Notes: a model not told the origin generated them from the letters alone. DNA of 64,000 bases from Ignavibacteria bacterium (GCA_037447335.1 JBBIGV010000011.1:8191-72190); one strand, 5' to 3'; shown: positions 293-58,407, numbered from the stretch's first letter. A program made the numbers and translations.

Positions 293-958
293 TCACTTCA
301 TCTTGTATAACTGCCACCACGGTGTTCCCGGCGCCTCATGATGCTCATGATACCCGAAGAAATAACAGCTTAACATCGCAAGCAGATGATTTGGTTTCTG
401 TGTCCGCGCCTTGTGAGGTTCCATCTCCTCAGTATGCGGAAGCATATGCGGGCGATAGGTGCCGAAGTAAAAAAGCTGCAGTGTTCCGAGGAATGCAGGT
501 ATAACCCAAAAACCCCATATTGACGCTTCATTAAAATGCAGCTTTAAATAATTGAATGCTACAGCCATAATGATAAGCTGCATTACTGTTGTATATCTCC
601 AGAGAAAAATTCCCCACCAAATAAAAAAGTTTTGTGATTTCATTTAAAAATCAGGATCATTCTTTTCCCCGGGCGATTTGTGATGCCTGAAGTGATTCTC
701 CTGAAGCTTTTTATAAGACAGTCCGGCAAATAAAAACGATGATATAATTCCCAAAAACCTGTTTACGTTCTTATTCTTTGATATATTACCATGCATTGCA
801 TCATGACCGGTAATAAACAAACCGGTGTACGAGTACGCCTGTATCAGAATGTGTATATAAAATACCGGCGAGAGCGTATCAACATTTACATAAGTCAATA
901 TGTAATACAAGTGAAGAAGCCACGCAGTTATAATTGTTACAGCTATTAATATTCCCAT
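293..958 (-). pseudogene. crtW: CrtW-type beta-carotene ketolase interrupted by one in-frame TAA
   Basis: ORFs 644..958 and 293..643 abut in the same frame and are split only by TAA at 644..646. The joined product carries the ketolase His boxes HDAMHG, HFRHH..DPDF and GYHEHHE. Confidence 0.8.
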
Positions 959-995
959 CTTTTAATATCCGTTTGGTTAATCTGTTATTTTAATT

Positions 996-1640
996 TTATA
1001 TGAACAGCATGAGCAAAATAAAAAAGACAAGCTGTATAATAAAGTAATGATCAAGGATTGCGTAAGATATCTTTAACCTGAGCAAGCCGGTAAAAAGTGT
1101 TGAAATGAAAGTAATACCAAACCATGCATAATAATTTTGTATCGGAATTATATTGTTTCCCCAGTTCCAGTAACCGAGCTTCATAGCCACAGGTTCAAGC
1201 ACCATGTCAAACAACACTGCAAGAGTTGAAGCCAGCAAAGCCACAAGAAAAACATTCCGGTCAATTGTATATGCAATGCTGATTGCGCCGAGCATTACCA
1301 TTACCCAATTAAAACCGATAATCAGCGGCACTTCAAATAACTTTAAGCCTAGAACATCGCCATAAGAATACTCACCAAATATTACTCCTGTTTTTACACC
1401 GTAAGCTTCAAGAATAAAAGTTACTAAAAATGTAATCACAGCCCAGAAAAACAATTTAACATTTGCTTCACGTAAAACAACGTAAAACACAACCGATCCT
1501 GTAATTAAAAGCGTATAGGGTGTCAGCAATAACATCAAACTTTTTAATGAAGCCAACAAATGCCCTATTGTTCCGACAATAAAGATCAGGTATAAAAAAG
1601 AGATTGCTTTTGATTCTGTTAATATTTTCTGTCTTTCCAT
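996..1640 (-). CDS. polytopic carotenoid biosynthesis membrane protein, CruF-like 1',2'-hydratase candidate
   Basis: 214 aa, all transmembrane helices, with a GVIFGEYSYGDVLG..VPLIIGFNW motif. It is embedded in the carotenoid operon and overlaps the upstream gene by 22 nt. Confidence 0.55.
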   Translation of the reverse strand: MERQKILTESKAISFLYLIFIVGTIGHLLASLKSLMLLLTPYTLLITGSVVFYVVLREANVKLFFWAVITFLVTFILEAYGVKTGVIFGEYSYGDVLGLKLFEVPLIIGFNWVMVMLGAISIAYTIDRNVFLVALLASTLAVLFDMVLEPVAMKLGYWNWGNNIIPIQNYYAWFGITFISTLFTGLLRLKISYAILDHYFIIQLVFFILLMLFI

Positions 1641-2707
1641 AATACTTTGCGCGTACGGGTTTTTATAAGTGAGCGTACACCCAATATAAACATAATTATT
1701 ATCTGGAATGGGTGCAGGCTTAGATTTAATACTACCTGCTGCCTGCTTTTTAATGAAACTAAAATTCTGTTCGCGATAATCATGAAGGATGCAATATAAA
1801 CTGCTGCAGATGCCGTCATAATAACCGGAGATAAAAATACCAGTGTCAAAGCAAGCAGTAAAAGAATAAATACAATTGGTGATGTATTAAATCCTGCGTA
1901 AAAATTTTTTGTAAAGCCGTTAAATGCTTCAATGATCCCGCCGTACATCCTGCAAAATATATAATCGCCTCCGAGGAGTGTGATTATTTTAACCTTCTTA
2001 TGCTTAACTGATCGTGCAAGCTCCATGTCTTCAACCAGTTTGTTTCTGACTGCAGCGTGCCCGCCGGAATCTTCATAAGTTTTTCTGTCCCAAAACATAA
2101 ACTGACCATTGGCGGCTACAAATTCCTTTCTGTCCGAGGTGAGCACCTTTTTAAGGGGAAGAAAACTTAAGAGCAGCCAGTTCATAAGAGGGACAGTCAA
2201 TAGCTCTCCAAATGACTTGATGACCTGCGTTGGAAATACCGTAAGCATCTTTGCGTTATTAGCAATCCTTTGTTTTGCAGCGAGAGAAACAGCCTTGCGC
2301 TTCAGCTTTACGTCAGCATCAATAAATAAAAGGAGATTGCCGCCTGAGGCTTTATACAACTGATGGCACGCAAAATTTTTTCCGAGCCAGCCTGAAGGAA
2401 GAACCCCGCCTTTTATTAGTTTAAGGTTTTTAAATTCAGGCAGCATGGCTTCAACTATCCCGGCAGTATTATCGGTTGACTGATCGTCAAGTACAATAAC
2501 TTCATTAATTTTTATATCTTGATCCAAAACACTTTCCAGACACTCTTGAATATTCTTCGCTTCATTTCTTGCCGGAATCAGAACCGATATTTCTGCATCA
2601 ACCTCAAAGTTATTGTATGTCGGCTTTATTTCCGGGGCAGTAATAAAATTGTATGCCGAAATAATTACTGCGATGCCAAGCGGTACAAGAAACAGGAATC
2701 CAAACAT
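1619..2707 (-). CDS. family 2 glycosyltransferase, CruC-like carotenoid glycosyltransferase candidate
   Basis: GT2 signature LIPARNEAKNI..VIVLDDQSTDNT, with flanking TM helices and an operon context next to an acyltransferase. Confidence 0.65.
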   Translation of the reverse strand: MFGFLFLVPLGIAVIISAYNFITAPEIKPTYNNFEVDAEISVLIPARNEAKNIQECLESVLDQDIKINEVIVLDDQSTDNTAGIVEAMLPEFKNLKLIKGGVLPSGWLGKNFACHQLYKASGGNLLLFIDADVKLKRKAVSLAAKQRIANNAKMLTVFPTQVIKSFGELLTVPLMNWLLLSFLPLKKVLTSDRKEFVAANGQFMFWDRKTYEDSGGHAAVRNKLVEDMELARSVKHKKVKIITLLGGDYIFCRMYGGIIEAFNGFTKNFYAGFNTSPIVFILLLLALTLVFLSPVIMTASAAVYIASFMIIANRILVSLKSRQQVVLNLSLHPFQIIIMFILGVRSLIKTRTRKVLWKDRKY

Positions 2708-3363
2708 TAGCTTTGTAACAGATTATTTTTTCCGGGGACAAATTGAACTTCATCAAGTTTTTTAAGATTTACGTGAATAAGTTTATTGTAATGATCAAAA
2801 TTTTCAATCACTTCGCCGGCAGATAACAGTTCGCCGAATCTGCAGATCACAAATGGTTTTCTCTCATTGCCATAAATAATTTTGAAAGCCGCTATTAATA
2901 CCTGAGTGAAGGGTTTCGTATTAATAAACTTTTTTATTCCCTCTTTAATTGATAATGGTCTTTTATCATATGGTTCAATTTCACCTTGCGGATAGAATAC
3001 CACATAATTAAAGGGTGATTTAAGGATTTCCTGCGTATAGCTTATAGTTTCAATTATGCTTTTAGGGTTATTATGATTTATTGAGTAGGCTCCTACCTTC
3101 CTGAAAAACCAATATTTTTTTAATTGTTCTTCAAGCATCAACAAATGTATTTTTTTATCTGTGAATTTCTTCATCACATAATCTACAAAGAAGCCATCCC
3201 ACCAAGAGAAATGATTAGGTGTAATTACCAAACTCCGGCTGTCATCAATATTTGGTTTATCATTAAGCAGATAAATGCCTGAAAAATTCTTTTTTAATAA
3301 TCTGAAGATATAAAAGTCATACAGGGACCTTGCCCATTTTTTATGTTCGGCTTTAATCAGCAT
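2707..3363 (-). CDS. lysophospholipid-type acyltransferase, CruD-like carotenoid glycoside acyltransferase candidate
   Basis: HX4D acyltransferase motif (NHFSWWDG). There is a 1-nt TAATG stop/start overlap with the glycosyltransferase. Confidence 0.6.
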   Translation of the reverse strand: MLIKAEHKKWARSLYDFYIFRLLKKNFSGIYLLNDKPNIDDSRSLVITPNHFSWWDGFFVDYVMKKFTDKKIHLLMLEEQLKKYWFFRKVGAYSINHNNPKSIIETISYTQEILKSPFNYVVFYPQGEIEPYDKRPLSIKEGIKKFINTKPFTQVLIAAFKIIYGNERKPFVICRFGELLSAGEVIENFDHYNKLIHVNLKKLDEVQFVPGKNNLLQS

Positions 3364-3372
3364 AATCTTTCT

Positions 3373-4828
3373 TTACCAAATCTGAAACAATTTTGCCTGA
3401 GAGAATAACGAGTGGTATCCCACCGCCCGGATGAACACTCCCGCCGCAAAAATTAATCCTTTTACCCACCGGGATTTGTTCGGGTGGCGGAGGAATGCCG
3501 AGTATTTACTATTTGAAGAAACACCGTATATACTGCCCCCGATGCTTACGGTGTACTTTTCAAGCATTGGCGGAGTAAGAAAACTTTCAACTGAAATTGA
3601 GTTTTTCAGATCTATCCCAAGTGCTGCATTAATTTTATTTATGGTTCGCTGCCGTGTAACAAAAAGCTGTTCATCCCAATCCTGACCTGAATCGTACGGA
3701 GTATTTATCATTACAAACCAGTTTTCATATCCTTCCGGAGCATCGCCTTTATTAATTTTGGAAGAAATGTATATATAAATTGTTGGATCTTCAAAACAGA
3801 TTTTCCGGATAAATATATCATCAAATTCTTTTTTGTAATCTTCAGAGAAAAGAATATTGTGAGTTTCAAGTTTATCGTGGCTGCCCTTCACACCCCAGTA
3901 AAACACGATCCCGGAAAGATGGCTCAGGCTTTGTCAATTTCTTTTCGTTTTCCGAATAAACATCTTTCAACAGGTACTGATATGTATAATTCACATCAAC
4001 ATTTGAAATAACTATATCGTAATCCATTTCCTGTCCGTTAACAACAATACCCGCTGCTCTGTTATTTTTAATTAATATTTTTTCACCCCGGGCCTCATAA
4101 TTAATTGTAACACCTGAATCAAAGCATAGTTTCTGCAGCGCTTCTGAAATTGAAATTATCCCGCCCTCCGGAATAAAGGCGCCAAGGTTATATTCTACAT
4201 GAGGAATTATGTTAAGCGCAGCCGGCGCGCGGTAGGGATCAGAACCATTGTATGTAGCATAGCGATCGAATAGCTGTACAGTTTTTTTATCCTGGAAAAA
4301 GGATCTGTTTGCCCTGTGCATTGTTCTGAATGGATCAATCTTGTTTAAGCGTAAAAGTGTACTGACAGCTTTGAGGTTAAAATAAGTTTTTATTGAGGAA
4401 GGATTATTATAAAGAAATAAATCTGCGGTGAGATCATATATGTTTTTACAATATTCAAGATACTTTTTAACAGAATAAGCGTTGTCGGCTGTATTCGTTT
4501 CAATCTCCTTTGCAAATTCATCCGGATCTGAATATGCATTAATTACCGTTCCATCCGGATAAAAATATTTACAAACCGGATTAAGTTCACGTATCTGAAT
4601 ATACTTTTCCATCTGCTTGCCGGCAGAATCAAATAATTCTTTGAGAACAAAAGTCATTGTAAGCAGCGAGGGTCCGGTATCAAACCTGAAACCGTTAATT
4701 AATAGATTGCCTGCCTTTCCTCCAGCCGAATTATTCTGTTCAAATATATCCACTTGAAAGCCTGCGTTAGCCAATCTTATTGCTGCTGAAAGACCGCCCA
4801 AATCTGCGCCTATAACTGCTGCTTTCAT
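3373..4828 (-). pseudogene. CrtD/CrtI-family FAD carotenoid desaturase, frameshifted
   Basis: N-terminal GADLGGLSAAIRLANAG..GGKAG dinucleotide fold (3872..4828). The C-terminal half (3373..3906) is in another frame. The junction ..KPEPS / (I)VFYWGVKG places the shift near 3910..3918. Confidence 0.75.
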
Positions 4829-4829
4829 A

Positions 4830-5498
4830 TTAACCCCGGTGTTTAAAGTAGTTATAGAACAGCAGCCAGTAGGAAATCATTGAGAACGAATAGAAAAAAT
4901 CTTCTGCGGGAATTGTAATGATTCGCAATCCGAAAATTTCATTCTCATTATAAGTAACCACAGGCAGAGAGGTAAGAAAATAATTAACTGCAAGGAAAGG
5001 AATAAAAGTAATCAACATTGTTATCCAGTAAACCCGTGACTGCAGCATTGCAGGGTAAAGATATAATGCAGAGGGAAAAAATACTGCTGTAATCATGAAT
5101 ACTGTAAACGTATAAGATTGATCATTAAATATAATCGCTGCTATCAATAATAAAATTACCGGTATAGCAAAAAATGAACGACTTATTTTTAAATCTTTTT
5201 CCCTGAGGTAGAATGATACGGTTTCGTAAATAAAAATGCAGCTATACGGAACAGTGATAAAGAATAAAATTTCTTCAATTGGTAAACGAAACAGCGTTAC
5301 ACCGGTAACATATGCCGGATTAAAAGCCCAGTCGCCGCGCCATGTTGCAAGCACATCCCAGGCTATATAAACCGGGCTGACTACCATCACAGAATTGATA
5401 TAGTATTTCAGATTTTTATAGAATCGAAGGTTCTTTTCATTTGAAAGCAGGAGAGGAATCAGAATGATAAAAATATTTATCAGAAGATAAACACACAT
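4830..5498 (-). CDS. fused heterodimer-type lycopene beta-cyclase (CrtYc-CrtYd, two lycopene cyclase domains)
   Basis: 222 aa membrane protein with the duplicated PxE(E/D) motif (RLPIEEILFF and IPAEDFFY) typical of CrtYcd. Confidence 0.7.
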   Translation of the reverse strand: MCVYLLINIFIILIPLLLSNEKNLRFYKNLKYYINSVMVVSPVYIAWDVLATWRGDWAFNPAYVTGVTLFRLPIEEILFFITVPYSCIFIYETVSFYLREKDLKISRSFFAIPVILLLIAAIIFNDQSYTFTVFMITAVFFPSALYLYPAMLQSRVYWITMLITFIPFLAVNYFLTSLPVVTYNENEIFGLRIITIPAEDFFYSFSMISYWLLFYNYFKHRG

Positions 5499-6067
5499 CG
5501 TTTTGCCAATGATATAGCAATATGCTTAAGCTCGTTAATATTTTCACTGCTGAGGCGGTTGCTTTCAAGCATAAATTCGATTATTCCTTTTTGCAGCGTA
5601 TAGTCAACTTCTGAATAATCACGCTCTTTAAGCAGCTCCACTATAACCTGCTGATCTTCACGTCGTTCTTTGCCGTAGCCTAAAATTCCCGGAAGATGGT
5701 GAAGAATAGAGAATCTTATAAAGCGGATTTCAAGGTCTCTTGGTTCTAGCTGCACTGATTTTTCAAGTATATCCAGAGCAGATATAACATAACTTAATTT
5801 TGAGAAAGGATTGAAAACGTGTTTTGCTTTCAATGCATCCACTGCGCCATAGTATGCAATTATAATAGGCTGCGGACTTTTGGAATAATTTCTATGAAGA
5901 AATCCCTCAAGCGCTGCAAGCTGGCTTTCATCTTCAACAGCCTGATAAAATAGTTCGCGGTTAATCCTGAGGTGAGACGTATCAACTTTAGATTTTTCTG
6001 AAGTAAACGCGTAGGGAGTCTCATTAAGAATGAAAACGAAACAAAAAACTGCAAAAATTATTTTCAT
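5480..6067 (-). CDS. secreted helical protein of unknown function inside the carotenoid operon
   Basis: Signal peptide MKIIFAVFCFVFIL. ATGA overlap with the crtB stop and a 19-nt overlap with the cyclase start. I recognise no family. Confidence 0.5.
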   Translation of the reverse strand: MKIIFAVFCFVFILNETPYAFTSEKSKVDTSHLRINRELFYQAVEDESQLAALEGFLHRNYSKSPQPIIIAYYGAVDALKAKHVFNPFSKLSYVISALDILEKSVQLEPRDLEIRFIRFSILHHLPGILGYGKERREDQQVIVELLKERDYSEVDYTLQKGIIEFMLESNRLSSENINELKHIAISLAKRCVFIF

Positions 6068-6908
6068 CAGGTTATTCTCAGAATTTTTAATTCAAAAAAA
6101 GTTTTTGCAAACAAAGCAAGCTTGGTAAAATTGGAAACCCTTACACGTTTTTTCATCAGGTCTTTAACCTGAAGTTTTCTGATCTTCTTAAAAAGTATCC
6201 AATAATACATATAGGCTGAATAAACTCCAAGCCTCACACCACCAGGCAACCTCTTAATACCCCAGAATGCAAGTTAAAACTCTTTCTGAATTTCGATTTC
6301 AAGTTTTCGTTTATTCTCATCATCTATCAGCGTCATACTGCTAACCCCCGGCAGATAAATCCTTCCCCGTTCGGCAAGATCGCACTTAATGTCGCGCAAA
6401 AAATTTACTTTTTGAAATGCAGAACCTAGTGCACGCGCCGAAGGGACAAGTTTGTCAAATAATTCATTATCATTCCCACAAAACACTTTCAGGCACATCA
6501 GCCCTACTACTTCTGCGGAACCGTAAACGTAGTCATCGTAATGATCTTTTTCATAATAATTATTGTAAAGGTCCAGCTCCATGCTGTTCAGGAAATCAGT
6601 TATATATTTTTTATCAATCCGGTATTCATTCACAGTTTTCTGAAAAGCGTTCAATACGGGATTAACTGAAATGCCTTCACGGATTGCATATTCAGTATCG
6701 CTGCGGAACTGCATAAGCATTTCACGCCTGTTGTAATTGTAAAAGGAATAAACAATTTCATCAGCAAGTCTAACATAGCCGTAAATTGCGTAAATAGCCG
6801 CTCTGTATGCCGGAGCAAAAACTCTTATACCGAGGCTGAAAGAAGTGCTGTATTTTCTTGTGATTAATTTGCGACTTTATAGCTGGTTTTATGATATAGC
6901 TGTTCCAT
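6067..6908 (-). pseudogene. crtB: phytoene synthase with one frameshift and one in-frame TAA
   Basis: The gene is in three pieces:
- MEQLYHKTSYKVAN* (from the ATG at 6908).
- ITRKYSTSFSLGIRVFAPAYRAAIYAIYGYVRLADEIV...GRIYLP, reached by a -1 shift in an A-run at about 6868..6870.
- LAFWGIKRLPGGVRLGVYSAYMYY..KRVRVS, after an in-frame TAA at 6274..6276. Confidence 0.8.
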
Positions 6909-8384
6909 AATCATTCCGGATTCTTTCTGTTACAAGTTTTGAACTGATTATAACCATAGGCAGCCCAGTGCCCGGTGTTGTTGAGGCGCCAACGTAATAA
7001 AGATTGGGAAGCTTCTCATCTTTATTTTTTGGTCTGAATGCGCCTACCTGCATAATGTCATGCGCTAATCCTAGCCCGGAGCCTCTGTAAAGATTAAACT
7101 TCTTTTCCCAGTCCTCCGGTGTAAATACTTTTTTAACAAGAATATTTTCTTTTATGTTAAAGTTTGAACGTTTGCTTAAATCATCTATTATAATATCAGC
7201 GAGTTCTTGCCGTCGCTCCAGTCAGGGTTGTATCGTCTGTCCGGAACCGGGCAAAGAATAAAAATATTTTCACAGCCTTCAGGTTCACAATCAGATGCAG
7301 ACTTTGAAAGGACGTTCACATAGTAATAGGGTTTTTGCGGACTTACGGATGACGTAAAAATCTTATCTGCATAACCTCTGAAATTATTACCAAGAAAATA
7401 ATTGTGGTGCATCAGCGTATCAACCTTTCCTTTAACACCGAGGTAGATTGTAAATGGTGCGAGCGTCCAGTTCATTTTATCCAGCTTCTGTTGACTGAAG
7501 TTCTTTCTTCCAAGCATTTTGCCTCTGAAAGACGCAGCATCTGAATTCGAAACAAAAATATCCGCATTCCATTCTCTGCCGAGGTTATCCATTACCGAAT
7601 ATATTTTCCCGTTCGAATTAGAAATCATCACTACTTCGGTACTAAAAATAAAGTTAACTCCTTTTTCCCAGAGGATTTTCATCAATTCATTAACCAGCGT
7701 ATACATGCCGCCTTCAACCTTCCAGTAGCCATCATGCCTCATTTCGGTATAGTTAAGCAGAGAATAAATTGCCGGGGTCTGAAAAGGTGTTGAACCCAGA
7801 AAAAAAAGCAACCAGAGAAAAATGATCCTAACCTCGTTGGAATTAAAGTTCTTTTCAACTTCCGACCAAAGATTTCTGAAGAGATAGGGCAGGTGCTTCA
7901 TAGGAACTTTTGTAAGTGTATGCAGATACTTAATCAAACTATCAAAATTTGATTTTACAACTTTGTTCTCTGTTTCGTGAAAAAACTGTCCTGCTCTTTT
8001 AAGATACTGCTCAACTTTACCAGCAAGCCCGGGTTCAATATCCTTAAACTCCTCCTCTAATTTTTGAAGGTCTTTCCAAATTCTATAGGATTTTGGATTT
8101 CTTTCAAAGAATACCTGGTAAAGCGGGTCAAGCGGTGTAAGTTTAACAGGATTTTTTAGTCCGCAGCTATTAAACAGTTCGTCAAACTCATAACTCATGC
8201 TCATAAAGGAGGGACCAAAATCAAATGTAAATCCATCTGTTTTAAGCTGATTAAGCCTTCCGCCCGGTGTTGAATGTTTTTCAATTACAGTTACGTCATA
8301 TCCATCCGTGACGAGCCTGAGGGCTGTTGCCAATCCTCCTAAGCCGGAACCAATAATTATTGCTTTCTTATTCGTTTTTTGCAT
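6889..8384 (-). pseudogene. crtI: phytoene desaturase, frameshifted near the C-terminus
   Basis: N-terminal IIGSGLGGLATALRL..EKHSTPGGR. The C-terminal ADIIIDDLSKR...GSGLGLAHDIMQVGAFRPKNKD..LYYVGASTTPGTGLPMVIISSKL is in a different frame. The shift lies near 7201..7208. Confidence 0.8.
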
Positions 8385-8671
8385 AGTTGTAAGTAAAAAC
8401 GAAATTTTGATTCAATTAGTTCCGTGAAAAGAGCCTTTTTTTAAGAATTATGATAATAAGCTGCTTCTTTCACGGACACTGAATTGTATCAGCAAATTTA
8501 ATTTAAAATATTTCTAATAGGTAGATGAGGGAATCCGGTAGACCAGATGATATTGCAAACTATTTCAGGCGGCAAAACATTGATAACTTCAGGCGGTAAT
8601 TTCGCTATAAAGCCAATATAAATATTCCATTTAATGCAGATAATCATTATTTTTAGAAAAAAATTTAGTAT

Positions 8672-9613
8672 ATGTATTTCAATGAACGGAAATACGCAAA
8701 GCCCTTTTTCAAATGAGCTGGCGGCAAAACGCAGTTGTTAAATCAATTTAAGAATTTCTTTCCCGAAGATTTAAAGAATGGCAAGATTAAGTACTATTAT
8801 GAACCATTTCTTGGCAGTGGTGCTGTTTTCTTTTTTATTGCTCAAAATTATCCGATTAAGAAAGCTTTTTTATCCGATATTAATGAAGAATTAATTCTTA
8901 CATATAATGCAGTTAAGAATGACGTTTCAACTTTAATTAAAAATTTAAAGAAATTAAAGCGGGATTATTATTCTTTAAATGAGAAGTATCAGGAATTATT
9001 TTTCTATAAACACAGAGATACATATAATAAGGAGAAATCTAAAATTGATTTCACAGCGTACTCAAAAGAGTGGGTTGTTAGAGCAGCTCAAATGATTTTC
9101 TTAAATAAAACCTGCTTTAATGGTTTATTCAGTTTAAATAGAAAAGGAGAGTTTAATGTTCCTTTTGGCAGATATAAAAATCCAGGGATTCTTAATGAAG
9201 AAAATCTATTACTTGCATCAGAAGTTTTAAAGATCGCGGAAATCAGCCTAACTGATTTTGAATTGATACAGGAGTATATAACTCATGATTTTTTTGTTTA
9301 TTTCGATCCTCCTTACCGACCAATCAGTAAAACTTCAAGTTTCACATCTTATAGCAAACATGAATTTAATGACAAAGATCAGAAAAGACTCGCAAAGCTA
9401 TTCAAAGAATTGGGAATCAATGGAAATAAATTGATGCTAAGTAATTCTGATCCTCATAATGAAAACTCTTCAGATAATTTTTTTGAAAACCATTATTCTG
9501 ATTTTATGATAGAAAAAGTTAAAGCAAGCAGAATGATTAACTGTAAAGGAGATAAAAGAGGTGCGATAAATGAGCTTATAATTACCAATTATAATTTGGG
9601 AGCAATCCAATGA
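8672..9613 (+). pseudogene. Dam-like N6-adenine DNA methyltransferase with an in-frame TGA
   Basis: MYFNERKYAKPFFK-TGA-AGGKTQLL replaces the near-invariant PFLKWAGGK motif (TGA at 8714..8716). Downstream are EPFLGSGAVFF (motif I) and FDPPYRP (motif IV). Confidence 0.8.
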
Positions 9614-9924
9614 ATTATATTCCTTCACCCAATTATTTTAAAATATATTATACTTATCAAAAATATCCAGATATTTTTAAACCAACCGATAGGGTTCCGA
9701 TCAGGAAGATTAAAATTGACAAAAAGAGATTAGATTATTCAAATGATATTTATGAGGAAACAGTAAATGAAATTATCAATAATTTCCACATAGAGGGATG
9801 GGAACCTATTTTTATCACACCGGATTTTTATTTATCTGATGGTCATCACAGACTAAAAGCAGCGAAAAAGATGGGACTAAAATATATTGATGTAGTCATT
9901 GTCGAATACGAAATGTTAAAGTGA
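9610..9924 (+). CDS. ParB/sulfiredoxin-like nuclease domain protein
   Basis: 104 aa with the DGHHRLKAAKKMG motif. ATGA overlap with the methylase stop. Confidence 0.6.
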   Translation: MNYIPSPNYFKIYYTYQKYPDIFKPTDRVPIRKIKIDKKRLDYSNDIYEETVNEIINNFHIEGWEPIFITPDFYLSDGHHRLKAAKKMGLKYIDVVIVEYEMLK

Positions 9925-9975
9925 CTTTATTAATATTTTAAATGAGCTTTTCATAACTATAACAATGAAGTTTTA

Positions 9976-11129
9976 ATGGCTGGTTATCTTTTCAATTTAG
10001 ACAGCATAAATTCTCTTGAACTTTATATTCATAACGGAATTTATTCTACAAAACTATCTATTCCAGCTGGTGTTTGGAAAAACATCATGAGGCAACATTT
10101 GCTGATTATGCGACAATGAAAGAGGGCGATAATGTTTATTTCTTCATAATTAGGAAAATATATGGGGTTGGTGAGTTGGTAAGTGTTGGACGTGATTGCA
10201 AATATTGCAATTTTCCGCATGCTGGGTTACCTCAGAACTTTGAGTATAACAGCATTAGAAATACTTTACTATGGAATGAGGGAAATTTTAATAATAATCA
10301 AAGATGGATATGTTTGTTTAAGCCAGCTCCTTATTTCTTTAGAAATGGGATTGATATGGATGACATATTATCGTCAAATCCGGATTCTTTTAGGATGCTT
10401 CGAGCTTTTTGGAAGGTATCATTTATCAAATTTGATGATGAAGAAAATCAGGCGTTTAGAGATGCCTTGTTAAAATTCAATCAGGATGCGCTGACAAATA
10501 ATCACAATGACGTATTATTTAATTCTAATTTTAGTGAAATGCATGAGAGATTAAGAAATGATTTTGAATTAGAAAATTATTTGCTTGATGTTGGTCCCAT
10601 ATTAGAAAGTTGTTCTGAGAATAATAAGTTAAAACATGAAATGGCAATTGAGGCTGGTTTATTATACCAATTATCTAATGATCACAATCCAACTGAATTA
10701 ATTTTCGGCAGATGGGATTATTTATCACATCAAGTAATTGCTTTGCCATTTAAACCAATTGATTATATGGATAAAATGGATGTTTTTGGTTATTCTTATA
10801 TTACCGGCTATAATCCTACATAGTCGAACTATCTAGTTATTGAGATAAAAAAAGATGAGGCTAAGATTGAAGATTTAGAACAATTAATGAAATATGTCGA
10901 TTGGATAAAGGATGAATATTGTCATGGTGATTATAATATGATTGAAGCATTTTTGGTAGCATTTAATTTTAACGATAGTCTTATTAACCAAAAAGAAAGC
11001 ATTGCATTTAGAAAATTTACTGTGGGTAGACGTCCCGCAAAATCTTTTGAGTGGACAAAATTGCGGTTGATAAGTTATCAGTTTGATAACAGAGAAAAAA
11101 GAATAATATTTAATCCTATTGATGTTTAA
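9976..11129 (+). pseudogene. PD-(D/E)xK restriction endonuclease-like protein with a possible PUA/EVE-like N-domain; frameshift plus in-frame TAG
   Basis: MAGYLFNLDS..PAGVW (ATG at 9976) shifts frame in the A5 run 10078..10082 into HHEATFADYATMKEGDNVYFF. An in-frame TAG at 10821..10823 precedes YLVIEIKKDEA. The nuclease core is MDVFGY...IEIKK. The EVE-like call is inference only. Confidence 0.6.
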
Positions 11130-11904
11130 TTCAGAAATTAATTTAGAGAATACTTCCATGTGGTCCTTTCCCGAGAGGGGGAAATGGGCAACTCACAATC
11201 CAAAATATCGTGGCAATTTTGCTCCACAAATTGCCCGAAATCTTATTCTTAATTATTCTTCTGAGGGAGAATTAATTTTAGACCCCATGGTCGGTTCCGG
11301 AACAACATTGATTGAAGCAAAACTTTTACATAGAAGTGCAGTTGGAATTGACATTAATCCCGAGGCGGTTGAACTATCTAAAAAAGCGCTTGAGTTTAAT
11401 TATAATACTAACAGCAAACAAGGAGTAATTAAAGGAGATGCAAGAGATTTATCTATTTTTGATGATAACCAATTTGATTTAATAATAATTCATCCTCCAT
11501 ATTTGAATATAGTAAGGTATTCAAATGAATAAATACAGGAAGATTTGTCTTCAATTAGCTCATTACCCAAATTTTGTGATGAAATAGAAAAAGTGACGGC
11601 AGAACTTTACAGGGTTCTGAAACCAAATCGTTATTGTGCAATATTAATTGGAGATACGCGCAAAGCACAACATTATGTGCCTATTTCTTATAATGTAATG
11701 GAAAGATTTCTTAAAGCAGGTTTTGCTCTGAAAGAAGAAATAATAAAAGCACAGCATAACTGTGTTAATTCAAAGCGATGGGAATTAAAAGCAAAACAAT
11801 ACAAATTCTATTTAATAATGCACGAGCATCTTTTCGTTTTCCGAAAACCAAAAGCAGATGAAAATCTTTCAAGAATTTCATGGTCAATGAAAAAGAGAAG
11901 CTGA
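11122..11904 (+). pseudogene. N4/N6 DNA methyltransferase with an in-frame TAA
   Basis: LDPMVGSGTTLIEA (AdoMet motif I) and IIHPPY (motif IV). TAA at 11530..11532 splits two same-frame ORFs (..11532 and 11545..11904). Confidence 0.7.
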
Positions 11905-11943
11905 AAGCAGCCACACTGCGCTACGCCCACAGGAAGTGAAACA

Positions 11944-14900
11944 TCAGTTATACTCATCCCAGCTTTTTATTGCCAGGCTCCCATCCTTGTAATGCTTCAT
12001 GGATTTAAAAAATTGTTTGGCGAACTGAACATCCGTAAACAATGGAATATTCAGATCAACAGCCTTTCTTCTAATCAGGTAATCATTATCGAGTTCAACT
12101 TTTTCAGCCGTCTTGGGAATATTTATTACAAGATCTATTTTACCTTCTGCCATATAGGTGAGTATTGAGGGCTCCTGATTCTCGAAGGTCCTGAAAAGAG
12201 GAGTTACTTCAATACCGTTCTGTTTATAGAAATCGGCGGTGCCTTTGGTGCCATAGAATTTGATTCCAATGTTCTGAAGGTAAACCAATTCCTCGATAAG
12301 TTCAGCCTTGCTTTTTAAAACACCTGTTGAAAGCATAATGGCTTTTTGGGGAATTCTGTATCCCGTTGACATAAGGCTCTTTAAAAAAGCCTCGTTAAAA
12401 TCATCGCCAAGGCATGCAACTTCACCAGTAGATGACATTTCAACACCGGTAACAGGATCGGAGCCTTTTAATCTTGTAAATGAAAATTGTGATGCCTTCA
12501 CTCCAACGTAATCAACATCAAAAGACGTCCTGTCTATAATGGGGACTCGCTCGCCCATCATAAGTTTTGTTGCTATTTCAATAAAATTAATTTTTAGTGT
12601 TTTTGAGACGAACGGAAAACTTCTTGATGCACGCAGGTTACATTCTATAACTTTAACTTCATTATCTTTAGCAATAAATTGAATATTAAAAGGTCCTGTT
12701 ATGTTGAGTTCTCTGGCTACTTGTTTTGTTATCAACTTAACACGACGAATCGTTTCCAGATAAGTACGCTGCGGAGGTAAAACCAGCGTTGCATCACCCG
12801 AGTGAACTCCGGCATTTTCAACATGCTCTGAAATAGCCCAGCAAAATACTTCACCATTGTTAGCTACAGCGTCAACTTCAATTTCTCTGGCATCAGTAAT
12901 AAATTTGCTGAGCACAACGGGATGTTCCCTGTTCAGATCGGTAGCTTTTTTAAGATAATCATCCAGTTCGTCTTCAGTAAGGACGATGCTCATTGCTGCA
13001 CCGCTCAGAACATAACTCGGTCGTATAAGAACCGGGTACGTGACTTTATTTGCAAATTCTTTTGCATCTTCGAGGGTCGTTACCTCTTTCCATTCCGGCT
13101 GATCAACGACAATTCTGTCAAGGATATTCGAAAACTTGTGCCGGCTTTCTGCATTGTCTATCTGTACAGGAGATGTGCCAATAATTTTTATACCGGCATT
13201 GTGCAGCCTCATTGCAAGATTATTTGGTACTTGCCCCCCCATGGAAATTATCACGCCTTCCGGTTTTTCTTTTTCATAAATATCAAGAACTCTTTCAAAG
13301 GTTAATTGTTCAAAGTATAGCTTGTTACATATATCATAATCCGTCGAAACAGTTTCAGGATTACAATTGATCATTATAGTTTTGAAATTAAGCTTGTTAA
13401 GTGTCATCACTGCATTAACACAACACCAATCGAACTCAACTGACGAACCAATCCTGTAAGCTCCGCTTCCAAGAACCACAATCTGATCAGGCTCACTGCA
13501 GACAATATCATCATCTTTTCCATGATATGTCAGGTACAGATAATTTGTTTGTGCAGGGAATTCAGCAGCCATAGTATCAATTTGCTTAACTACCGGTAAA
13601 ACCCCGAGTTCTTTTCTTCTATATCTGACCGCCATTTCATTCGAGTTTACTAATGCAGCAATTTGCTGATCCGAAAATCCGTTTTTCTTTGCCTTATGCA
13701 TGAGAGTTTCATCAAGCTCACTTAGCTTTTTACCGGAGATGATTTTATCCATTTCAACAATGTTCTTCATTTTATAAAGGAACCACCTGGTGATTTTAGT
13801 TAAATCGTAAATCCGGTCAATTGAGTAGCCCTCCTGAAGAGCCTGGGCAATGGCGAATATCCGTTTATCGGTTGGATTAGCTAGTTCTTCATCAAGGTTT
13901 TCAAATAAGAAATCGTTACCAACAAAGCCCGCTTTGCCAACTTCGAGCATTCGGATTGCTTTCTGTAAAACTTCTTCAAAGCTTCTGCCAAGCGACATAA
14001 CTTCGCCAACAGATTTCATTTCGCTGCCGAGCTGTGTACTTACTTTTTGAAATTTTTGCAAGTCCCATCTGGGAAATTTTAATGCAATGTAATCAAGCGC
14101 CGGTTCAAAACAAGCTGAGGTTTCCTGCGTGATAATATTTACAACTTCATTGAGTGCATAACCAAGTGCAAGTTTTGTAGCAATGAATGCAAGAGGATAG
14201 CCGGTAGCCTTTGAGGCTAATGCAGAACTTCTGCTTAAGCGTGCATTTACTTCAATTATTCTGTAATCATCGCTGTTTGGATCAAGAGCATACTGAATGT
14301 TACATTCACCGATAACCCCGAGATGTCTTATCAGCTTTATACCGATAGAACGAAGCTTAAAATTTTCCTGTGCTGATAAAGTCTGAACCGGTGCAACAAC
14401 CACACTATCTCCTGTATGGATTCCCATCGGGTCAATATTTTCCATTGAGCAGATGGTAATGCAATTATTGTATTTATCGCGGACAATTTCGTACTCAACC
14501 TCTTTCCATCCGTAAAGAGATTCTTCAATCAAAATTTGTTTTGTGAATGAAAATGCACGCTTTGATTTTTCGATAAGTTCCTGCTTGTTGTTTACTATTC
14601 CGGATCCCAATCCCCCAAGCGCATAGGCTATACGAACCATAACCGGAAAGCTGATTTCTTCTGCTGCTGCGACTGCTTCGTCAACAGAACGAGCAGTTTT
14701 GCTTCGAGCAACTTTTAAACCAACCTCCCCGCATCGCTTTGCGAACAGGAAGCGGTCTTCCGTATCTTGAATTGATTCAACGGGAGTACCGAGAACACGT
14801 ATATTATATTTTTCAAGTATTCCCTGCTCATATAGTTCAACTCCAACATTCAGTGCAGTCTGTCCACCGAACTGAAGCAGTATGCTGTCCGGTTGTTCTT

Positions 14901-21822: not shown

Positions 21823-22143
21823 ATGTTGCGTCATAATGAAAGATTACAATGTGTTCCTGCTCAGTTTGCCTTGTATCAAAACTATCCCAACCCGTTCAAT
21901 CCAGTAACAAGTATGCAGTATGCAATAGACGGCCCGCCTGACGGCGAGGCTGGTAGGCAATTTGTAACCCTATAAGTTTATGATGTTTTGGGCAAAGAAG
22001 TTGCAACGCTTGTTAATGAATATAAAGAAGCAGGCAAGCACTCTGTTGAGTTCAATGCAACGGGACTTCCTTCAGGAGTTTACTTTTACAGGTTAAACGC
22101 CGGCAGCTTCTCCGAAACGAAGAAGATGATATTGCTGCGGTAA
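21823..22143 (+). pseudogene. orphan T9SS C-terminal sorting domain fragment with an in-frame TAA
   Basis: VPAQFALYQNYPNPFNPVTSMQY...VTL-TAA-VYDVLGKEVATLVNEYKEAGKHSVEF..GVYFYRLNAGSFSETKKMILLR, with the TAA at 21973..21975. No cargo domain lies upstream. Confidence 0.7.
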
Positions 22144-39436: not shown

Positions 39437-39466
39437 TAAAATATTATCACTTCTTATATGATTACT

Positions 39467-41288: not shown

Positions 41289-41321
41289 TTATTCATTACT
41301 AATAAATTCACAGGTTAATAG

Positions 41322-43136: not shown

Positions 43137-43268
43137 TTCCCTGTTCTTTAACAGAATGACAGAGCTTTAAGTTCTATAACTGTTTTGAATATTATCAACT
43201 AACAGAATTCGCCTAAATAACAACATAAGATGATTTGGCTTATTGTTTGAAATTTATTCAGATAGCTA

Positions 43269-44552
43269 TTGTCTTTTAGAAATTTACATTATAATTTAAT
43301 AACTATCATTGGAAGTCGTATTGTGGCAATAACTGCAGGAAAAAATATACTGGTAAATTTTTCAGAAAACATTCCGGCATCCTTAACCGGTCCGGACAGA
43401 GCTGCCTATATACTCGAAAATATAGACCGGCTTGAGGTTGATGAAAAAGTTGCTCTTCGTAATCTCTTTAACAAATTGCTAACCAGCATGATTGAAAGAG
43501 ATGCCTCCGATATTGAAATAGGCGGGCACGGAAACGAAGGCTATATATGGATGAGAGTGCACGGAAAGAAACAGCGTATTTCCGATTTACCCCAATTCTC
43601 TCTTGATGAAACTGCTATCCTCATAATCAATCTGCTTAATGCAAATCAGAGAAAGTATCTTTCGCTTACCCGAAACCTTGATTTCAGCCATACATTTTTT
43701 TATGAGAGGAAGAAAACAAACATTCGTTTCAGAGCGGATGCTTACTTTGACCTCGATACTCTCGCATTGAATATGCGCGCCATCAATGCAACCATCAGAC
43801 CTTTTTCTTCACTTGGTTTTCATCCTGTTGCGGCAAAGATGATGAGTCATACCTATATCAAGTTCGGGCTGTCTCTTGTAACAGGAATTACCGGTTCCGG
43901 TAAATCTACAACTCTGGATTCAATAATAGATGAACATAATAAGATAGACCCCTGCCATATTGTTATAATAGCTTCGCCTGTGGAATATGTTCATAAATCG
44001 AATGTCTCGATAGTAAGGCATAGAGAAGTTGGACGGGATGTGCTTTCATTCAAAGATGGTGTTACGCAATCATTACGACAGGACCCCGACATAATTGTTA
44101 TTGGTGAAATGAGAGACCCCGATACTATCCTTGCTGCTCTTGAAGTTACGGATACCGGGCACAAAGTTTTTTCTACTTTACACACATCATCTGCATCAGA
44201 ATCAATTGACAGAATAATCGCAGAAGTTCATCCGAATGAGCAGGAACGTGTAAGGAACAGGCTTGCAGATGTTTTAATATCTGTAGTATCTCAAAAGCTT
44301 GTCCCAAGCCTTGATGGTAAGCAGGTGCTCGCTAAAGAAGTGCTGATCGTTACACCAAGTGTTAAAGCAGCAATAAAAAATAATAACGTAAGCGAAATTT
44401 ATATGATGATAAACCAGGGTGCCAACCAGGGTATGATAACAATGGAGCAGGACCTTAAGCGGCTTTATCTTGAAAAAAAGATTTCGCTTGAAAATGCAAT
44501 AGCATATGCAAATAATAAAACAAGAATTCAGCAATTACTGGCGGCAGCATAA
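43269..44552 (+). CDS. pilT: PilT-family retraction-type ATPase with an N-terminal extension
   Basis: Walker A GITGSGKSTT, DPDIIVIGEMRD and GHKVFSTLHTSS. The start is uncertain (TTG at 43269 or GTG at 43323). Confidence 0.8.
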   Translation: MSFRNLHYNLITIIGSRIVAITAGKNILVNFSENIPASLTGPDRAAYILENIDRLEVDEKVALRNLFNKLLTSMIERDASDIEIGGHGNEGYIWMRVHGKKQRISDLPQFSLDETAILIINLLNANQRKYLSLTRNLDFSHTFFYERKKTNIRFRADAYFDLDTLALNMRAINATIRPFSSLGFHPVAAKMMSHTYIKFGLSLVTGITGSGKSTTLDSIIDEHNKIDPCHIVIIASPVEYVHKSNVSIVRHREVGRDVLSFKDGVTQSLRQDPDIIVIGEMRDPDTILAALEVTDTGHKVFSTLHTSSASESIDRIIAEVHPNEQERVRNRLADVLISVVSQKLVPSLDGKQVLAKEVLIVTPSVKAAIKNNNVSEIYMMINQGANQGMITMEQDLKRLYLEKKISLENAIAYANNKTRIQQLLAAA

Positions 44553-46094: not shown

Positions 46095-46981
46095 ACAGGA
46101 AAATAATCAGTACGCTCGGACTTGTCGGTTTGCTCGTTATCATCCTGCTGCTTGGCGGATTATATATATTTCTCTTTCAAAGAGGTGACCTTGAAACGAA
46201 AAGAGAAAAATTAAAAGAGCTTAAAGCTTATGATTACGATACAGATCAGCTTTTAAATCAGCTTGAAACTCTTGAATTGCGGTCTGCCGTTCTGGATTCA
46301 ATACTTGCAGCAAGAAAGTTTAATATACCCTATGATATTTCATCAATTAAGTTCTATGATTTTCTTAATAACATAAGCCGAAGTTTTTCTTCAAGCACAC
46401 AGATAGATATTGAATACATGGAACAAAAAGCCGATAAAGAATTTCAGTTTTATGAATATAAAATCGGCGGCACAGGTCCATTCAGTGATTTGTACAAATT
46501 ACTGGTTGCTATCGAAAACAGTAAAGAGCTGAAAAAGATAAACTCGGCAATGATGAATAATTATGTCGGCACCGATGAAGACGGCTACCCACAGTTTATG
46601 GTAAGTTATGTGCTCAATGTAAAAACATACTTTGCTGATAATAACAGATTTACTACTGCGGATTTTGTTGAAAATGATTTATCGGCAAGACCTGTTTATG
46701 ATGCATTCTTTCCGCTTATACGAAACGAAATACCTCCAAACATAGATATGCTGCTTGACGTTCAAGGCGCAAGGCTGCTTGCTCTTATTCCGGAAGGCGC
46801 ATTTCTTTCCGACAGCCGGGGTAATACCTATCTGATCTGGGAAGGCGACCCGGTATATCTTGGATATCTGACAAAAATAGACTACGATCATAATATGGTC
46901 AGCTTTATTCTGAATAAAGGTGGAATTATTGAAAAAGTGGACCTTGAGCTGGCTCAGGAAGATAAAACAAAGAAGAAATAA
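46091..46981 (+). CDS. PilO-like protein fused to a PilP-like C-terminal domain
   Basis: TM helix and coiled coil, then a ferredoxin-like core (YEYKIGGTGPFSDLYKLLVAIE), then PilP-like FFPLI...LLALIPEGAFLSDSRGNTYLIWEGDPVYLGYLTKID. Confidence 0.55.
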   Translation: MNRKIISTLGLVGLLVIILLLGGLYIFLFQRGDLETKREKLKELKAYDYDTDQLLNQLETLELRSAVLDSILAARKFNIPYDISSIKFYDFLNNISRSFSSSTQIDIEYMEQKADKEFQFYEYKIGGTGPFSDLYKLLVAIENSKELKKINSAMMNNYVGTDEDGYPQFMVSYVLNVKTYFADNNRFTTADFVENDLSARPVYDAFFPLIRNEIPPNIDMLLDVQGARLLALIPEGAFLSDSRGNTYLIWEGDPVYLGYLTKIDYDHNMVSFILNKGGIIEKVDLELAQEDKTKKK

Positions 46982-46998
46982 TATAGTGAGAGATTAAC

Positions 46999-48228
46999 AT
47001 GAAAAAGTTTTTTGTCTGTTTCGTTATTGTAATTTTTGCTGCCGGAAGTTTTTACCCGCAGCGTCACCTTGAAAAGCAGTTCAAGGGTTATACTAATCCC
47101 GAAGAGCTTGTTTCTTTATCGCCCGATATTTCGTTCAATCAGGCTGTTGAACTGCTTAGCAAAGTAAGCGTAAATATTACCGGCAAGAAAATAATTTCTA
47201 CTGTTGACCGGAGCGAACCTATCGGGATGGATATTCGCAATATGCCTTACGATAAGGTGCTGGTTATTTTGGTTCAATATGCAAATCTTCTTTTTGAAGA
47301 AAGAGAAGATGTGATTGTTATTAAAAGAAAGGGGGAAGAGAAAGAGAAAAGCCCGGAAACTTACGCGGCAGTTGATAGTCGTGAAGTAAAAATATCAGCA
47401 GTATTTTTTGAAATGGATGTAAATGCTTCCAAAGAAAGAGGTGTTAACTGGAAATTTTTGCTTTCAAAAAAGGGACTTGATATTGGCAGCGAAATGCGCT
47501 CTTTTACCGAACAACAGCAAACGGGCGGGCAGCAGCAAACACAGCAAACACCGGAGTTTAAAGTTGGCGGCTCTTCAACTTTTGATGCCGGCGGTTTCTT
47601 TGGTGAAGCTACTGCAATGTTCAAATTTTTTGAAGAAGAAAATCTCGGCGAAATCATCGCAAGCCCAAACATTATCGTTCGTGACAGAAACCAGGGAAGA
47701 ATTCAGGTGGGTTCCGATTTCTCTGTAAAGCAGCGTGATTTTGCAGGAAATATTGTTGAAAGTTTCTTCCCTACGGGCACAATAATTGAAGTTACTCCAT
47801 ATGTCTATAACGAAGAAGGCATAAATTATATGCTTCTTGATATTAAAGTTGAAAGAAGCTCGTTCGTTCAGGGTGAAGTTACAACCGAAGTCAGGAAAAC
47901 AACTGCTAATACGCAGGTTATTATGTTGGATGAAGAAGAAACTGTTATTGGTGGTTTATTTATAAATGAAGAAATAAAAATTAGAACCGGAATTCCGTTT
48001 CTGAAAGACCTGCCCTGGTGGGTATTTGGCATAAGATACCTTACTGGCAGCGACCAAACAGTTCTGAGAAAAAAAGAACTGGTTATCTTAATAAAGGCTG
48101 AACTTGTGCCAACTTTGAAAGAAAGAATTGCAGGTACTAAATCAAGTTCACCAATAAGAGATGAAATTTTAAGGAACAGAGATAGAATCCGGTATTATCA
48201 GTTCAATCAATCAACCGATGGAAATTAA
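46999..48228 (+). CDS. pilQ: short secretin (PilQ/GspD family)
   Basis: Signal peptide and an N0/STN-like domain. Secretin core IIASPNIIVRDRNQGRIQVG...GGLF...IPFLKDLPWWVFGIRYL. Q-rich insert QQQTGGQQQTQQT. Confidence 0.8.
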   Translation: MKKFFVCFVIVIFAAGSFYPQRHLEKQFKGYTNPEELVSLSPDISFNQAVELLSKVSVNITGKKIISTVDRSEPIGMDIRNMPYDKVLVILVQYANLLFEEREDVIVIKRKGEEKEKSPETYAAVDSREVKISAVFFEMDVNASKERGVNWKFLLSKKGLDIGSEMRSFTEQQQTGGQQQTQQTPEFKVGGSSTFDAGGFFGEATAMFKFFEEENLGEIIASPNIIVRDRNQGRIQVGSDFSVKQRDFAGNIVESFFPTGTIIEVTPYVYNEEGINYMLLDIKVERSSFVQGEVTTEVRKTTANTQVIMLDEEETVIGGLFINEEIKIRTGIPFLKDLPWWVFGIRYLTGSDQTVLRKKELVILIKAELVPTLKERIAGTKSSSPIRDEILRNRDRIRYYQFNQSTDGN

Positions 48229-56369: not shown

Positions 56370-56724
56370 CTAAAACCCGGTTTTACCCGGTTTTTTTTTA
56401 TTTAGTTTTCATCTTTTATTACTTGAGCCGCTATATAGTCAAATCCTTACTGATCCCTGAGTGCGTGCAGAAAAAAATTACTTGTGGTTCAAATCAGTAT
56501 GAGTTTAAATAAAATGCTTGAATTTATCCGTTTCAATATAAACACAATCTGCATATAACAGCAAGCAAGACGACAATCCTTTAATATATCCGAATAACCA
56601 CTGTAAATTTACGAAATCTTAACGCAATAATAACAGCTTTCGATAAGCATTCAAGATTGTATTTAAATTTTAAGAATACATCTATATATTGTTTACACAA
56701 TAATATTCAGTAAATGCGTTTATT

Positions 56725-57066
56725 ATGGGCGAAATTGTTTTATGGACGATAATCCGTACCGTCATTTTAATACCACTGCTCTGGCTGGCACAGCCGTACA
56801 TTGATATGAAGTTTTGGTGGCTTGTTGCTGCTATGGCTGTCTACGGATTTGTTATTCACCCTGCTATTGTACGATACAGAGTGTTTGAAGAAAAAAATCA
56901 AGATATAATTGAATCAACACTTTGCTCTACCTGTAAGCATTTCGATAAATCGGCTGTTCTTTGTATGAAATATGACAAACATCCTACAAAAGATTTTTTG
57001 CCATGTGAAGGACTTGATTGGGAGCCGAATCTGGATTCAGGTATGAATGCAGAAAAAACTTTATAG
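56725..57066 (+). CDS. small membrane protein with a Cys-rich C-terminal segment
   Basis: Two TM helices, then CSTCKHFD..C..C. Confidence 0.4.
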   Translation: MGEIVLWTIIRTVILIPLLWLAQPYIDMKFWWLVAAMAVYGFVIHPAIVRYRVFEEKNQDIIESTLCSTCKHFDKSAVLCMKYDKHPTKDFLPCEGLDWEPNLDSGMNAEKTL

Positions 57067-57186
57067 TAATTATTCGGACCAACTCCGCTCTCAGTGATCC
57101 GATGTCCCATTTAATCCAACCTGTGTCACTATTGAATCAGTCAACCAAATGATGTTCAATAAATAACTTTAAATAGGAGGAGAATC

Positions 57187-58407
57187 ATGAAAAAGGGATT
57201 TTGTTCGGTCTCGATAGGGATTGTGTTAATACTTTTAATGAACTGTTCAGTCTACACTCAAAGCTGGACAATTCAGAACAGCAACACAACTCAACAACTA
57301 AAAGGTATTCATATGGTTAATGAACTTGTCGGTTGGATTTGTGGTGATGGCGGCGCTTTGCTACATACTACAACCGGGGGTCAGACCTGGACACCTGTTC
57401 CGATTATTGCTGCTGATCTTCATAGTGTGGTTTTCAAAGATCAGAATACCGGAATTGTTGTTGGTGATAACGGTATAATCTTAAGAACTACTAACGCCGG
57501 AACTAATTGGAATCAGGTTAACAGCACAACTTCATCTCAATTAAGGGCTGCTGCAGTGAGCAACGCGGGGATATTCTAGGCAGCAGGCAGAGATGGTGCC
57601 ATAGTGAAATCAACAGATGATGGCGCTACCTGGACATCTCAAAACAGCGGAACAACCGCTCGCTTCAGAGGAATTGCAGCAAGGGGTACCAGCTTTGCCT
57701 GGGCAGTTGGCGAAGATGGAATGATCAAACATACTGCAGCCAGTGGCGCTTCATGGTTTAACCAGACAAGCGGAACACCGGACGATCTTCATGATATTCA
57801 ATTTCTGTCAGATTCTGAAGGCTTTTCCGGCGGCAGCGGATCTAAAATTATCTATACTAATAATGCTGGTAGTGTCTGGTCTGACAGATCAACCGGGATT
57901 ATTACGGGTATAAACGGAATTTTCTTCCTTAATACTAATTCAGGATATGCAGTCAGTGATAATGGTCTGATATACGTAACTAACAATGGCGGCGTGAATT
58001 GGTTAACCCAACCAAGTAATACAACACAAACTTTAAATGAAATCTTTTTTGTCAGTGAAAATAAAGGCTGGGCTGTTGGTGATTTTGGAACCATTGTTCA
58101 CTTCAGTGCATCTGCTACCAGCATTGATAATCAGTTATTATTGAATTAGTTTTCACTTGAACAAAATTTCCCTAATCCATTTAATCCGGTTACCGCTATC
58201 AGTTTTTACATTCCTGAAAATTATTTTGTTACTCTGAAAGTGTATAATGTAGTTGGCAGAGAAGTAGCTCTGTTGATAAACGATAATCTCCCCTCCGGCA
58301 GGTACAGTTATAATTTTAGTGCAGATAATTTAGCATCAGGAATTTACTTTTATGAGCTTTCTGCGGGTAACTTCAGACAGGTAAAAAAAATGATACTAAC
58401 TAAATAA
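57187..58407 (+). pseudogene. BNR/Asp-box beta-propeller (Ycf48-like) T9SS cargo with two in-frame TAG codons
   Basis: Three same-frame segments are split by TAG at 57577..57579 and 58147..58149. There are six SxDxGxTW-like repeats, and the terminal segment is a T9SS CTD (LEQNFPNPFNP..GIYFYELSAG). Confidence 0.8.

Follow-up and report, generated by a model that had tools for sequence, protein, structure and literature searches.

Why should a single 64-kb stretch of DNA from an Ignavibacteria genome carry at least 13 gene-disabling lesions, all of them in a carotenoid operon, a restriction-modification (R-M) cassette and two genes related to the type IX secretion system (T9SS)? The stretch (hereafter the window, meaning the whole 64 kb analysed) is carried by contig CAYSPC010000011.1 (72,353 bp) of the metagenome-assembled genome (MAG) GCA_964432855.1 (Ignavibacteria), and the same sequence lies on Logan contigs of run SRR11582151, labelled 'subsurface metagenome' (2020, 449 million bases). 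Homologues of the window genes come overwhelmingly from Ignavibacteria MAGs, and the source is an environmental, uncultured Ignavibacteria lineage. About 75 kb of the source genome was surveyed and compared with 160 related loci, 80 from genomes (GTDB) and 80 from metagenomes. It appears, with a probability that we put at roughly 85%, that the broken genes are true pseudogenes in a natural population and that they arose by ordinary pseudogenisation after purifying selection was lost on dispensable functions.

The lesions are real in the DNA and not an artefact. An earlier annotation of this stretch (the sequence-only reading) had listed eight in-frame stops, all of which are present on the coding strand: TAA at 644-646, 6274-6276, 11530-11532 and 21973-21975, TGA at 8714-8716, and TAG at 10821-10823, 57577-57579 and 58147-58149. 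Each sits within a frame that aligns to homologues on both sides. The four frameshifts that it had put near 3914, 6869, 7205 and 10080 also exist and can be placed at 3910-3922, 6876-6878, about 7211-7213 and 10078-10082, respectively. Its total of twelve was too low, since the window holds no fewer than 13 net disabling lesions, namely eight stops plus five net frameshifts, as well as one compensated frameshift pair in crtI and two missense changes at invariant functional residues, in crtB and crtD. The independent Logan assembly of SRR11582151 (word depth 24-25) is identical to window positions 1-12000 except at base 4788, and Logan contigs show zero differences over the stretches containing 21973, 57577 and 58147. 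All 12 originally listed lesions are present in that assembly, whose contigs gave the same split gene calls. The earlier view that the lesions are not read errors therefore holds, on evidence from assembled consensus (MAG contig and Logan assembly) rather than from reads.

The distribution of the lesions is far from even. Four of the nine genes of the carotenoid operon, all three enzymes of the R-M cassette and the two T9SS-related genes are affected, so that the proposed confinement to carotenoid, R-M and T9SS-cargo genes is borne out within the window. A 10.9-kb part of the 64 kb contains ten of the 13 net lesions (P = 3.5e-6; corrected, 2e-5). By comparison, 49 uninterrupted open reading frames (ORFs) totalling 50.1 kb and containing 372 homopolymers of at least 5 bases have no frameshift and no other lesion, and where homologue alignments cover the window (26.9 kb), coding frames contain no in-frame stops other than the known ones at 644, 6274, 21973, 57577 and 58147. 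When read through, the products match Pfam or NCBIfam profiles or homologues end to end, showing full-length homology to functional families. Judged by their reading frames, the broken genes would be pseudogenes without a functional product, a conclusion indirectly supported by the loss of the crtB DxxxD Asp and the crtD GxGxxG Gly described below.

The carotenoid operon (293-8384, minus strand) has the gene order crtI-crtB-(195-aa ORF)-crtYcd-crtD-cruD-cruC-cruF-crtW, colinear with the 80 Ignavibacteria genome loci compared. Its Pfam and NCBIfam matches, its synteny with those 80 loci and its agreement with a published gene list (PMC3362086) identify it as a deoxyflexixanthin-type operon, and its best identity to four relatives compared gene by gene is 50-74%. 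The cluster of Ignavibacterium album, which makes deoxyflexixanthin and 1-OH-torulene, has the same gene set (PMC3362086); unlike that cluster, the window operon has crtI, crtB, crtD and crtW disrupted. With its first committed steps blocked, the pathway is not expected to yield pigment.

The phytoene desaturase pseudogene crtI (6889..8384) carries a 1-base deletion near 7211-7213. Two high-scoring segment pairs (HSPs) abut at 7212, one in frame -2 (aa 6-391), the other in frame -1 (aa 392-496), and in all 160 listed relatives the alignment to the crtI query ends at residue 391-397, close to the break in the frame. Further upstream in the gene lies the compensated pair, in which a T6 run has become T5 within 7815-7824 and a T7 run has become T8 within 7797-7809, about 12 bases apart. 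Between them the SLVA found in 79 of 79 relatives reads LWLL, and a 1-base shift restores SLVA. The neighbouring phytoene synthase pseudogene crtB (6067..6908; Pfam SQS_PSY) has been hit three times. One A has been lost from an A4 run at 6876-6878, which cuts the first 11 codons off from the rest, so that the N-terminus MEQLYHKTSYK stands in one frame and SRKLITRKYSTSF in another. In addition, the second Asp of its DEIVD (DxxxD) motif, codon 6748-6750, is Tyr here and Asp in 76 of 76 relatives, and the TAA at 6274 replaces a codon that in relatives specifies Lys (25), His (10), Glu (7), Asp and others.

The crtD-like desaturase pseudogene (3353..4828) combines two frameshifts, a 2-base 'CT' deletion from a TCTCT repeat (3910-3922) and a 1-base deletion at 3446-3459, after which the last ~35 codons are back in the original frame. 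Against intact orthologues of 502-516 aa its alignment falls into three HSPs, with frames -3, -1 and -3. The second Gly of its GxGxxG motif (reference position 21) is Asp here and Gly in 53 of 53 relatives. This gene also contains the one base at which the two assemblies of the same run differ, position 4788, where the MAG has G (Ser, the conserved residue) and Logan has A (Leu); the population is thus not strictly clonal. The crtW-type carotenoid ketolase pseudogene (293..958) is split by the TAA at 644-646 into two pieces matching NCBIfam BCarotKetCrtW positions 26-129 and 133-248, with a further match to Pfam FA_desaturase. A single blastx HSP spans the stop, where relatives have Tyr (29) or Asn (16).

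The remaining five genes of the operon, all on the same strand, are intact: cruF (996-1640; Pfam Caroten_synth), the glycosyltransferase gene cruC (1619-2707; Glycos_transf_2), the acyltransferase gene cruD (2707-3363; Acyltransferase), the lycopene cyclase gene crtYcd (4830-5498; Lycopene_cyc) and a conserved, uncharacterised 195-aa ORF with a hydrophobic N-terminus (5480-6067). The first three match relatives colinearly over their full length, and near-invariant sites in them show 0 to 1 deviations. No Pfam or NCBIfam family matches the 195-aa ORF. In 45 related Ignavibacteria loci a counterpart (30-54% identity) stands at this same place between crtB and crtY, which makes the ORF a probable, as yet uncharacterised, part of the carotenoid operon. 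An excess of substitutions at near-invariant sites of the broken genes was considered as a further sign of decay and set aside: of the raw deviations (7/224 in crtI, 3/90 in crtB and 3/80 in crtD), 3 of 13 sit at frameshift boundaries and 4 in the compensated block, leaving a modest 6/~387 on which we do not rely.

How unusual is such an operon? Among the 80 metagenome loci, five of 356 near-complete crt genes are broken, and against that background the probability of finding at least four broken genes among eight is 2.6e-6, an approximate figure as the operon has nine genes. In the 80 GTDB genome loci, crt lesions occur in two short-read MAGs, a soil MAG (L101) with a nonsense codon in the crtI GxGxxG motif and the deep-mine MAG DeMMO6_3 (L120), which has a crtD frameshift near the C-terminus (14860-14960), and in four MAGs that we take to be long-read assemblies. 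In these last (the MFD MAGs L093, L102, L111 and L118), many frame changes interrupt crtD, crtY and the glycosyltransferase gene, L093 having up to 10 stops in crtD, and we assume that the breaks reflect homopolymer errors of assembly and not biology. In one further locus, L197, the acyltransferase gene contains a stop and crtW is frameshifted. Relatives as a rule preserve the operon intact.

The second affected unit, the putative R-M cassette (8672-11904), is a low-GC island (31-33% GC against ~38% around it) that contains a Dam-class methyltransferase, a 104-aa ORF, a 384-aa protein and an N4/N6 methyltransferase, all on the plus strand. In the Dam-family (D12) adenine methyltransferase gene (8672..9613), the TGA at 8714-8716 replaces the Trp of KPFxKWAGGK, in line with the TGG-to-TGA change that had been proposed for this site, and the read-through product covers Pfam MethyltransfD12 2-253/253 and TIGR00571 dam 2-267/267. 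The gene for the 384-aa read-through product (9976..11129), a putative restriction nuclease, is broken twice, by contraction of an A6 run to A5 at 10078-10082 and by the TAG at 10821-10823, which aligns with Lys (9) or Arg (5) among 15 homologues directly before a conserved E-x-K. The N4/N6 DNA methyltransferase gene (11119..11904; Pfam N6_N4_Mtase) is broken by the TAA at 11530-11532; its homologues reach 86% identity, and the nearest carry Lys at this position (YSKEKIKEDLS). PADLOC calls both methyltransferases type II.

The 384-aa protein has 1369 homologues in many phyla, and among the best 120 most have lengths of 379-398 aa, with identities of 54-63% over 97-100% of the query. Beyond a weak NucS_C match, no Pfam, NCBIfam, PADLOC or restriction-enzyme model matched this family. 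Its PD-(D/E)xK-like D...ExK segment and its position between two methyltransferases suggest that it is likely an undescribed family of restriction endonucleases. The order Dam(D12)-384-aa protein-N6_N4 methyltransferase recurs in two unrelated metagenome contigs, L178 and L179 (384-aa family member at 4001-5155 in both), of which L179 additionally holds a DpnII-family endonuclease. The intact 104-aa ORF (9610..9924), which overlaps the Dam stop codon (ATGA), is absent from both of these cassettes. It may be ParB-like, judging from its sequence alone, and it could be a domain remnant; it matches, weakly, the N-terminus of a 436-aa PADLOC methyltransferase model. The methyltransferase and nuclease genes have close homologues in many phyla, which together with the low GC content fits a dispensable acquired element. 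Synteny upstream of crtI was uninformative about an insertion of the island, as relatives carry unrelated genes there. The nuclease probably died before its two methyltransferases.

Two T9SS-related genes on the plus strand complete the set. One (21838..22143; Pfam Por_Secre_tail), interrupted by the TAA at 21973-21975, had been taken for a whole gene, and it turns out to be an orphan C-terminal sorting domain of ~100 aa: its alignments reach only the C-terminal 90-100 aa of proteins 335-926 aa long, no cargo domain precedes it, and the upstream neighbour, a DUF4920 gene (21132-21644), is complete. It was already a remnant before, or independently of, its stop. The proposed ancestral Lys at that stop agrees with the Lys found in 149 of 220 aligned sorting domains. 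Around this site the Logan word depth rises from 25 to more than 300 (window 21844-22263), and a 30-kb Logan contig stops at 22025, where the assembly graph fragments because conserved T9SS sorting-domain sequence is common to many genes and organisms in the sample. The other gene (57187..58407) encodes a T9SS cargo protein with a hydrophobic N-terminus, a PSII_BNR/Ycf48-like propeller (PSII_BNR 6-302/303 on read-through) and a Por_Secre_tail sorting domain, and is interrupted in one frame by the TAGs at 57577-57579 and 58147-58149. The first stands at the Trp position of a BNR repeat (Trp being the commonest aligned residue, 16) and the second at a variable residue in a linker. The relatives found for this gene do not exceed 35% identity, and its ancestral codons therefore rest on repeat and domain alignments.

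Several independent hits per gene (in crtB, crtD, crtI and the nuclease gene), missense changes in catalytic motifs, clustering by functional unit and untouched housekeeping genes together give the picture of neutral decay. Under the reading that we prefer, selection would have been lost on three functions, namely the making of carotenoids, an R-M cassette gained by horizontal transfer and individual cargo proteins of the T9SS, after which spontaneous mutations would have built up neutrally, as stop-creating or motif-destroying substitutions and as indels by slippage at short repeats. The death of one gene would strip the other members of its pathway or cassette of their value, and lesions would accumulate in the same unit. 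About 4.4% of random substitutions create stops, and at that rate the eight nonsense changes in 8.9 kb would correspond to roughly 2% neutral divergence. The decay would therefore be recent, which fits the still high identity to orthologues and the lack of large deletions inside the operon. The compensated pair in crtI could hint at selection on this gene shortly before its death.

Some observations weigh against this reading. Five operon genes are intact and show no excess change at conserved sites, and they may retain some function or may simply not yet have been mutated. The evidence comes from one genome and one run, in assemblies that carry no allele fractions, and the Ser/Leu polymorphism at 4788 indicates some heterogeneity. 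Finally, the confinement of lesions to accessory genes holds for the ~75 kb surveyed only.

It is conceivable, if unlikely, that the lesions go back to a transient mutator episode, with mismatch repair, proofreading or the repair of oxidative damage defective, and that they survived only in dispensable genes. The density of lesions is high for 64 kb, several are slippage indels, and the polarisable nonsense changes lean towards one class: four of the seven are Lys AAR to TAR, two are Trp TGG to TGA or TAG and one is Tyr to TAA. Under a uniform spectrum the Lys excess has P ~0.016, a post hoc value from seven events with inferred ancestors; the excess is weak, and it might reflect an unusual spectrum biased to A:T to T:A. 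The earlier statement that there is no single mutational signature is roughly right, with this qualification. The spectrum as a whole is mixed and mostly made up of transversions (A to T, G to A, T/C to A and G to T among the changes), as opposed to the transition-dominated signature of mismatch-repair defects, and no repair gene lies within the window. The ancestral codons themselves come from relatives no closer than ~75% identity. A sister strain that could polarise the mutations, as had been suggested, was found neither in the public-run index nor among GTDB species genomes or JGI metagenomes, where the nearest CrtI sequences are 74-76% identical, so that relatives at no more than 76% identity (CrtI) supply the ancestral residues by alignment. 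The public-run index search returned no near-identical sequence from other runs, only the source run SRR11582151, and exact-protein look-ups gave no match outside MAG GCA_964432855.1 and the Logan contigs of that run. The run accession had no hit in the literature searched. Above all, a mutator is unneeded, as neutral decay yields the same pattern. Among the causes that the sequence-only reading had offered, relaxed selection is the one that gains support.

Sequencing or assembly errors, or a chimeric strain consensus in the MAG, are a still poorer explanation and would be surprising. The window is a metagenome-assembled contig, most of the indels lie in short repeats, one single-nucleotide difference separates the two assemblies, and the presumed long-read MAGs among the relatives contain many frameshifts. 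However, the two independent assemblies agree at every lesion, eight of the lesions are substitutions, the 372 homopolymers in the other ORFs carry no frameshift, and the lesions are accompanied by missense changes at invariant catalytic residues.

That the interruptions are functional, through read-through or recoding (suppressor tRNA, selenocysteine, programmed frameshifting) or as phase-variable switches, is very improbable. R-M genes are often phase-variable through homopolymers, and a gene for an eRF1-like protein (Pfam baeRF_family3 and family6, 361 aa) begins at ~63928, occupying window positions 63928-64000 and continuing in L165 (7596-8681). No connection of this gene to the in-frame stops was found. 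All three stop codons end normal genes: the terminators of the 49 intact ORFs are TAA (32), TGA (10) and TAG (7). With aspS and the pilB homologue ending in TAG, and crtB and the receiver gene in TGA, codon reassignment is excluded, as had been argued. RNA scans of the window found no selenocysteine insertion sequence (SECIS) element or suppressor tRNA, the sole RNA gene being tRNA-Lys(UUU) with no other Rfam match. Moreover, the TGA replaces an invariant Trp and not a Cys or selenocysteine position, the runs are short (A5, A3), and the same genes carry catalytic-motif missense changes and indels outside repeats. Laboratory domestication of a cultured strain, for which we found nothing, is excluded by the provenance of the sequence, an environmental subsurface metagenome run and a MAG contig (CAYSPC010000011.1 of GCA_964432855.1).

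If ordinary pseudogenisation explains the broken genes, why should the pigment have become dispensable? A dark habitat is a plausible and unproven reason, and it is tempting to propose that the lineage is midway through regressive pigment loss after a move to the dark subsurface. The genes for the committed early steps, crtB and crtI, and crtD have been hit most heavily and the tailoring genes are still intact. We regard this scenario as tentative and on balance doubtful, for the operon is intact in subsurface relatives from CROMO (L087), from Mont Terri (BRH_c32, L140) and from an African mine (L136), and one other subsurface relative has a single frameshift.

Elsewhere in the window, a type IV pilus or type II secretion system (T2SS)-like locus (37043-48228) with T2SSF, two T2SSE ATPases and a secretin is uninterrupted, as are its ORFs of 126, 121, 161-178, 175, 513 and 296 aa that have no family match.

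For annotation, the locus urges caution, as this MAG should not be scored as carotenoid-producing or as having an active R-M system, though most of the genes are 'present'. It also offers a clean, well-controlled example, from an environmental genome, of a whole pathway decaying through multiple hits. The phenomenon is ordinary gene decay and has no bearing on a long-standing open question.

Known systems help to place each part of this picture. In type II R-M systems such as DpnII, MboI and LlaDCHI, two methyltransferases, one Dam-class and one N4/N6-class, occur together. The window cassette has the same pairing, by analogy with which its specificity might be GATC, and differs in that its putative nuclease belongs to an uncharacterised ~384-aa family, in its extra 104-aa ORF and in the inactivation of all three enzymes. 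The formation of pseudogenes where selection is relaxed is familiar from host-restricted or niche-shifted lineages such as Mycobacterium leprae and Salmonella Typhi, and the decay in the window resembles theirs in its nonsense changes and slippage frameshifts, its several hits per gene, the clustering of lesions in dispensable pathways and the sparing of housekeeping genes. Unlike these pathogens, the window lineage is a free-living environmental one and shows no sign of genome-wide reduction in the ~75 kb surveyed. Regressive pigment loss is known from dark-living lineages such as cave animals, and here too the organism was sampled from a lightless habitat and its pathway for a pigment is in decay. 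The analogy is imperfect, as several other subsurface Ignavibacteria keep an intact operon and the causal link to darkness is hypothetical; if it is true, the loss of carotenoid synthesis in this lineage would be a microbial counterpart of the loss of pigment in cave animals.

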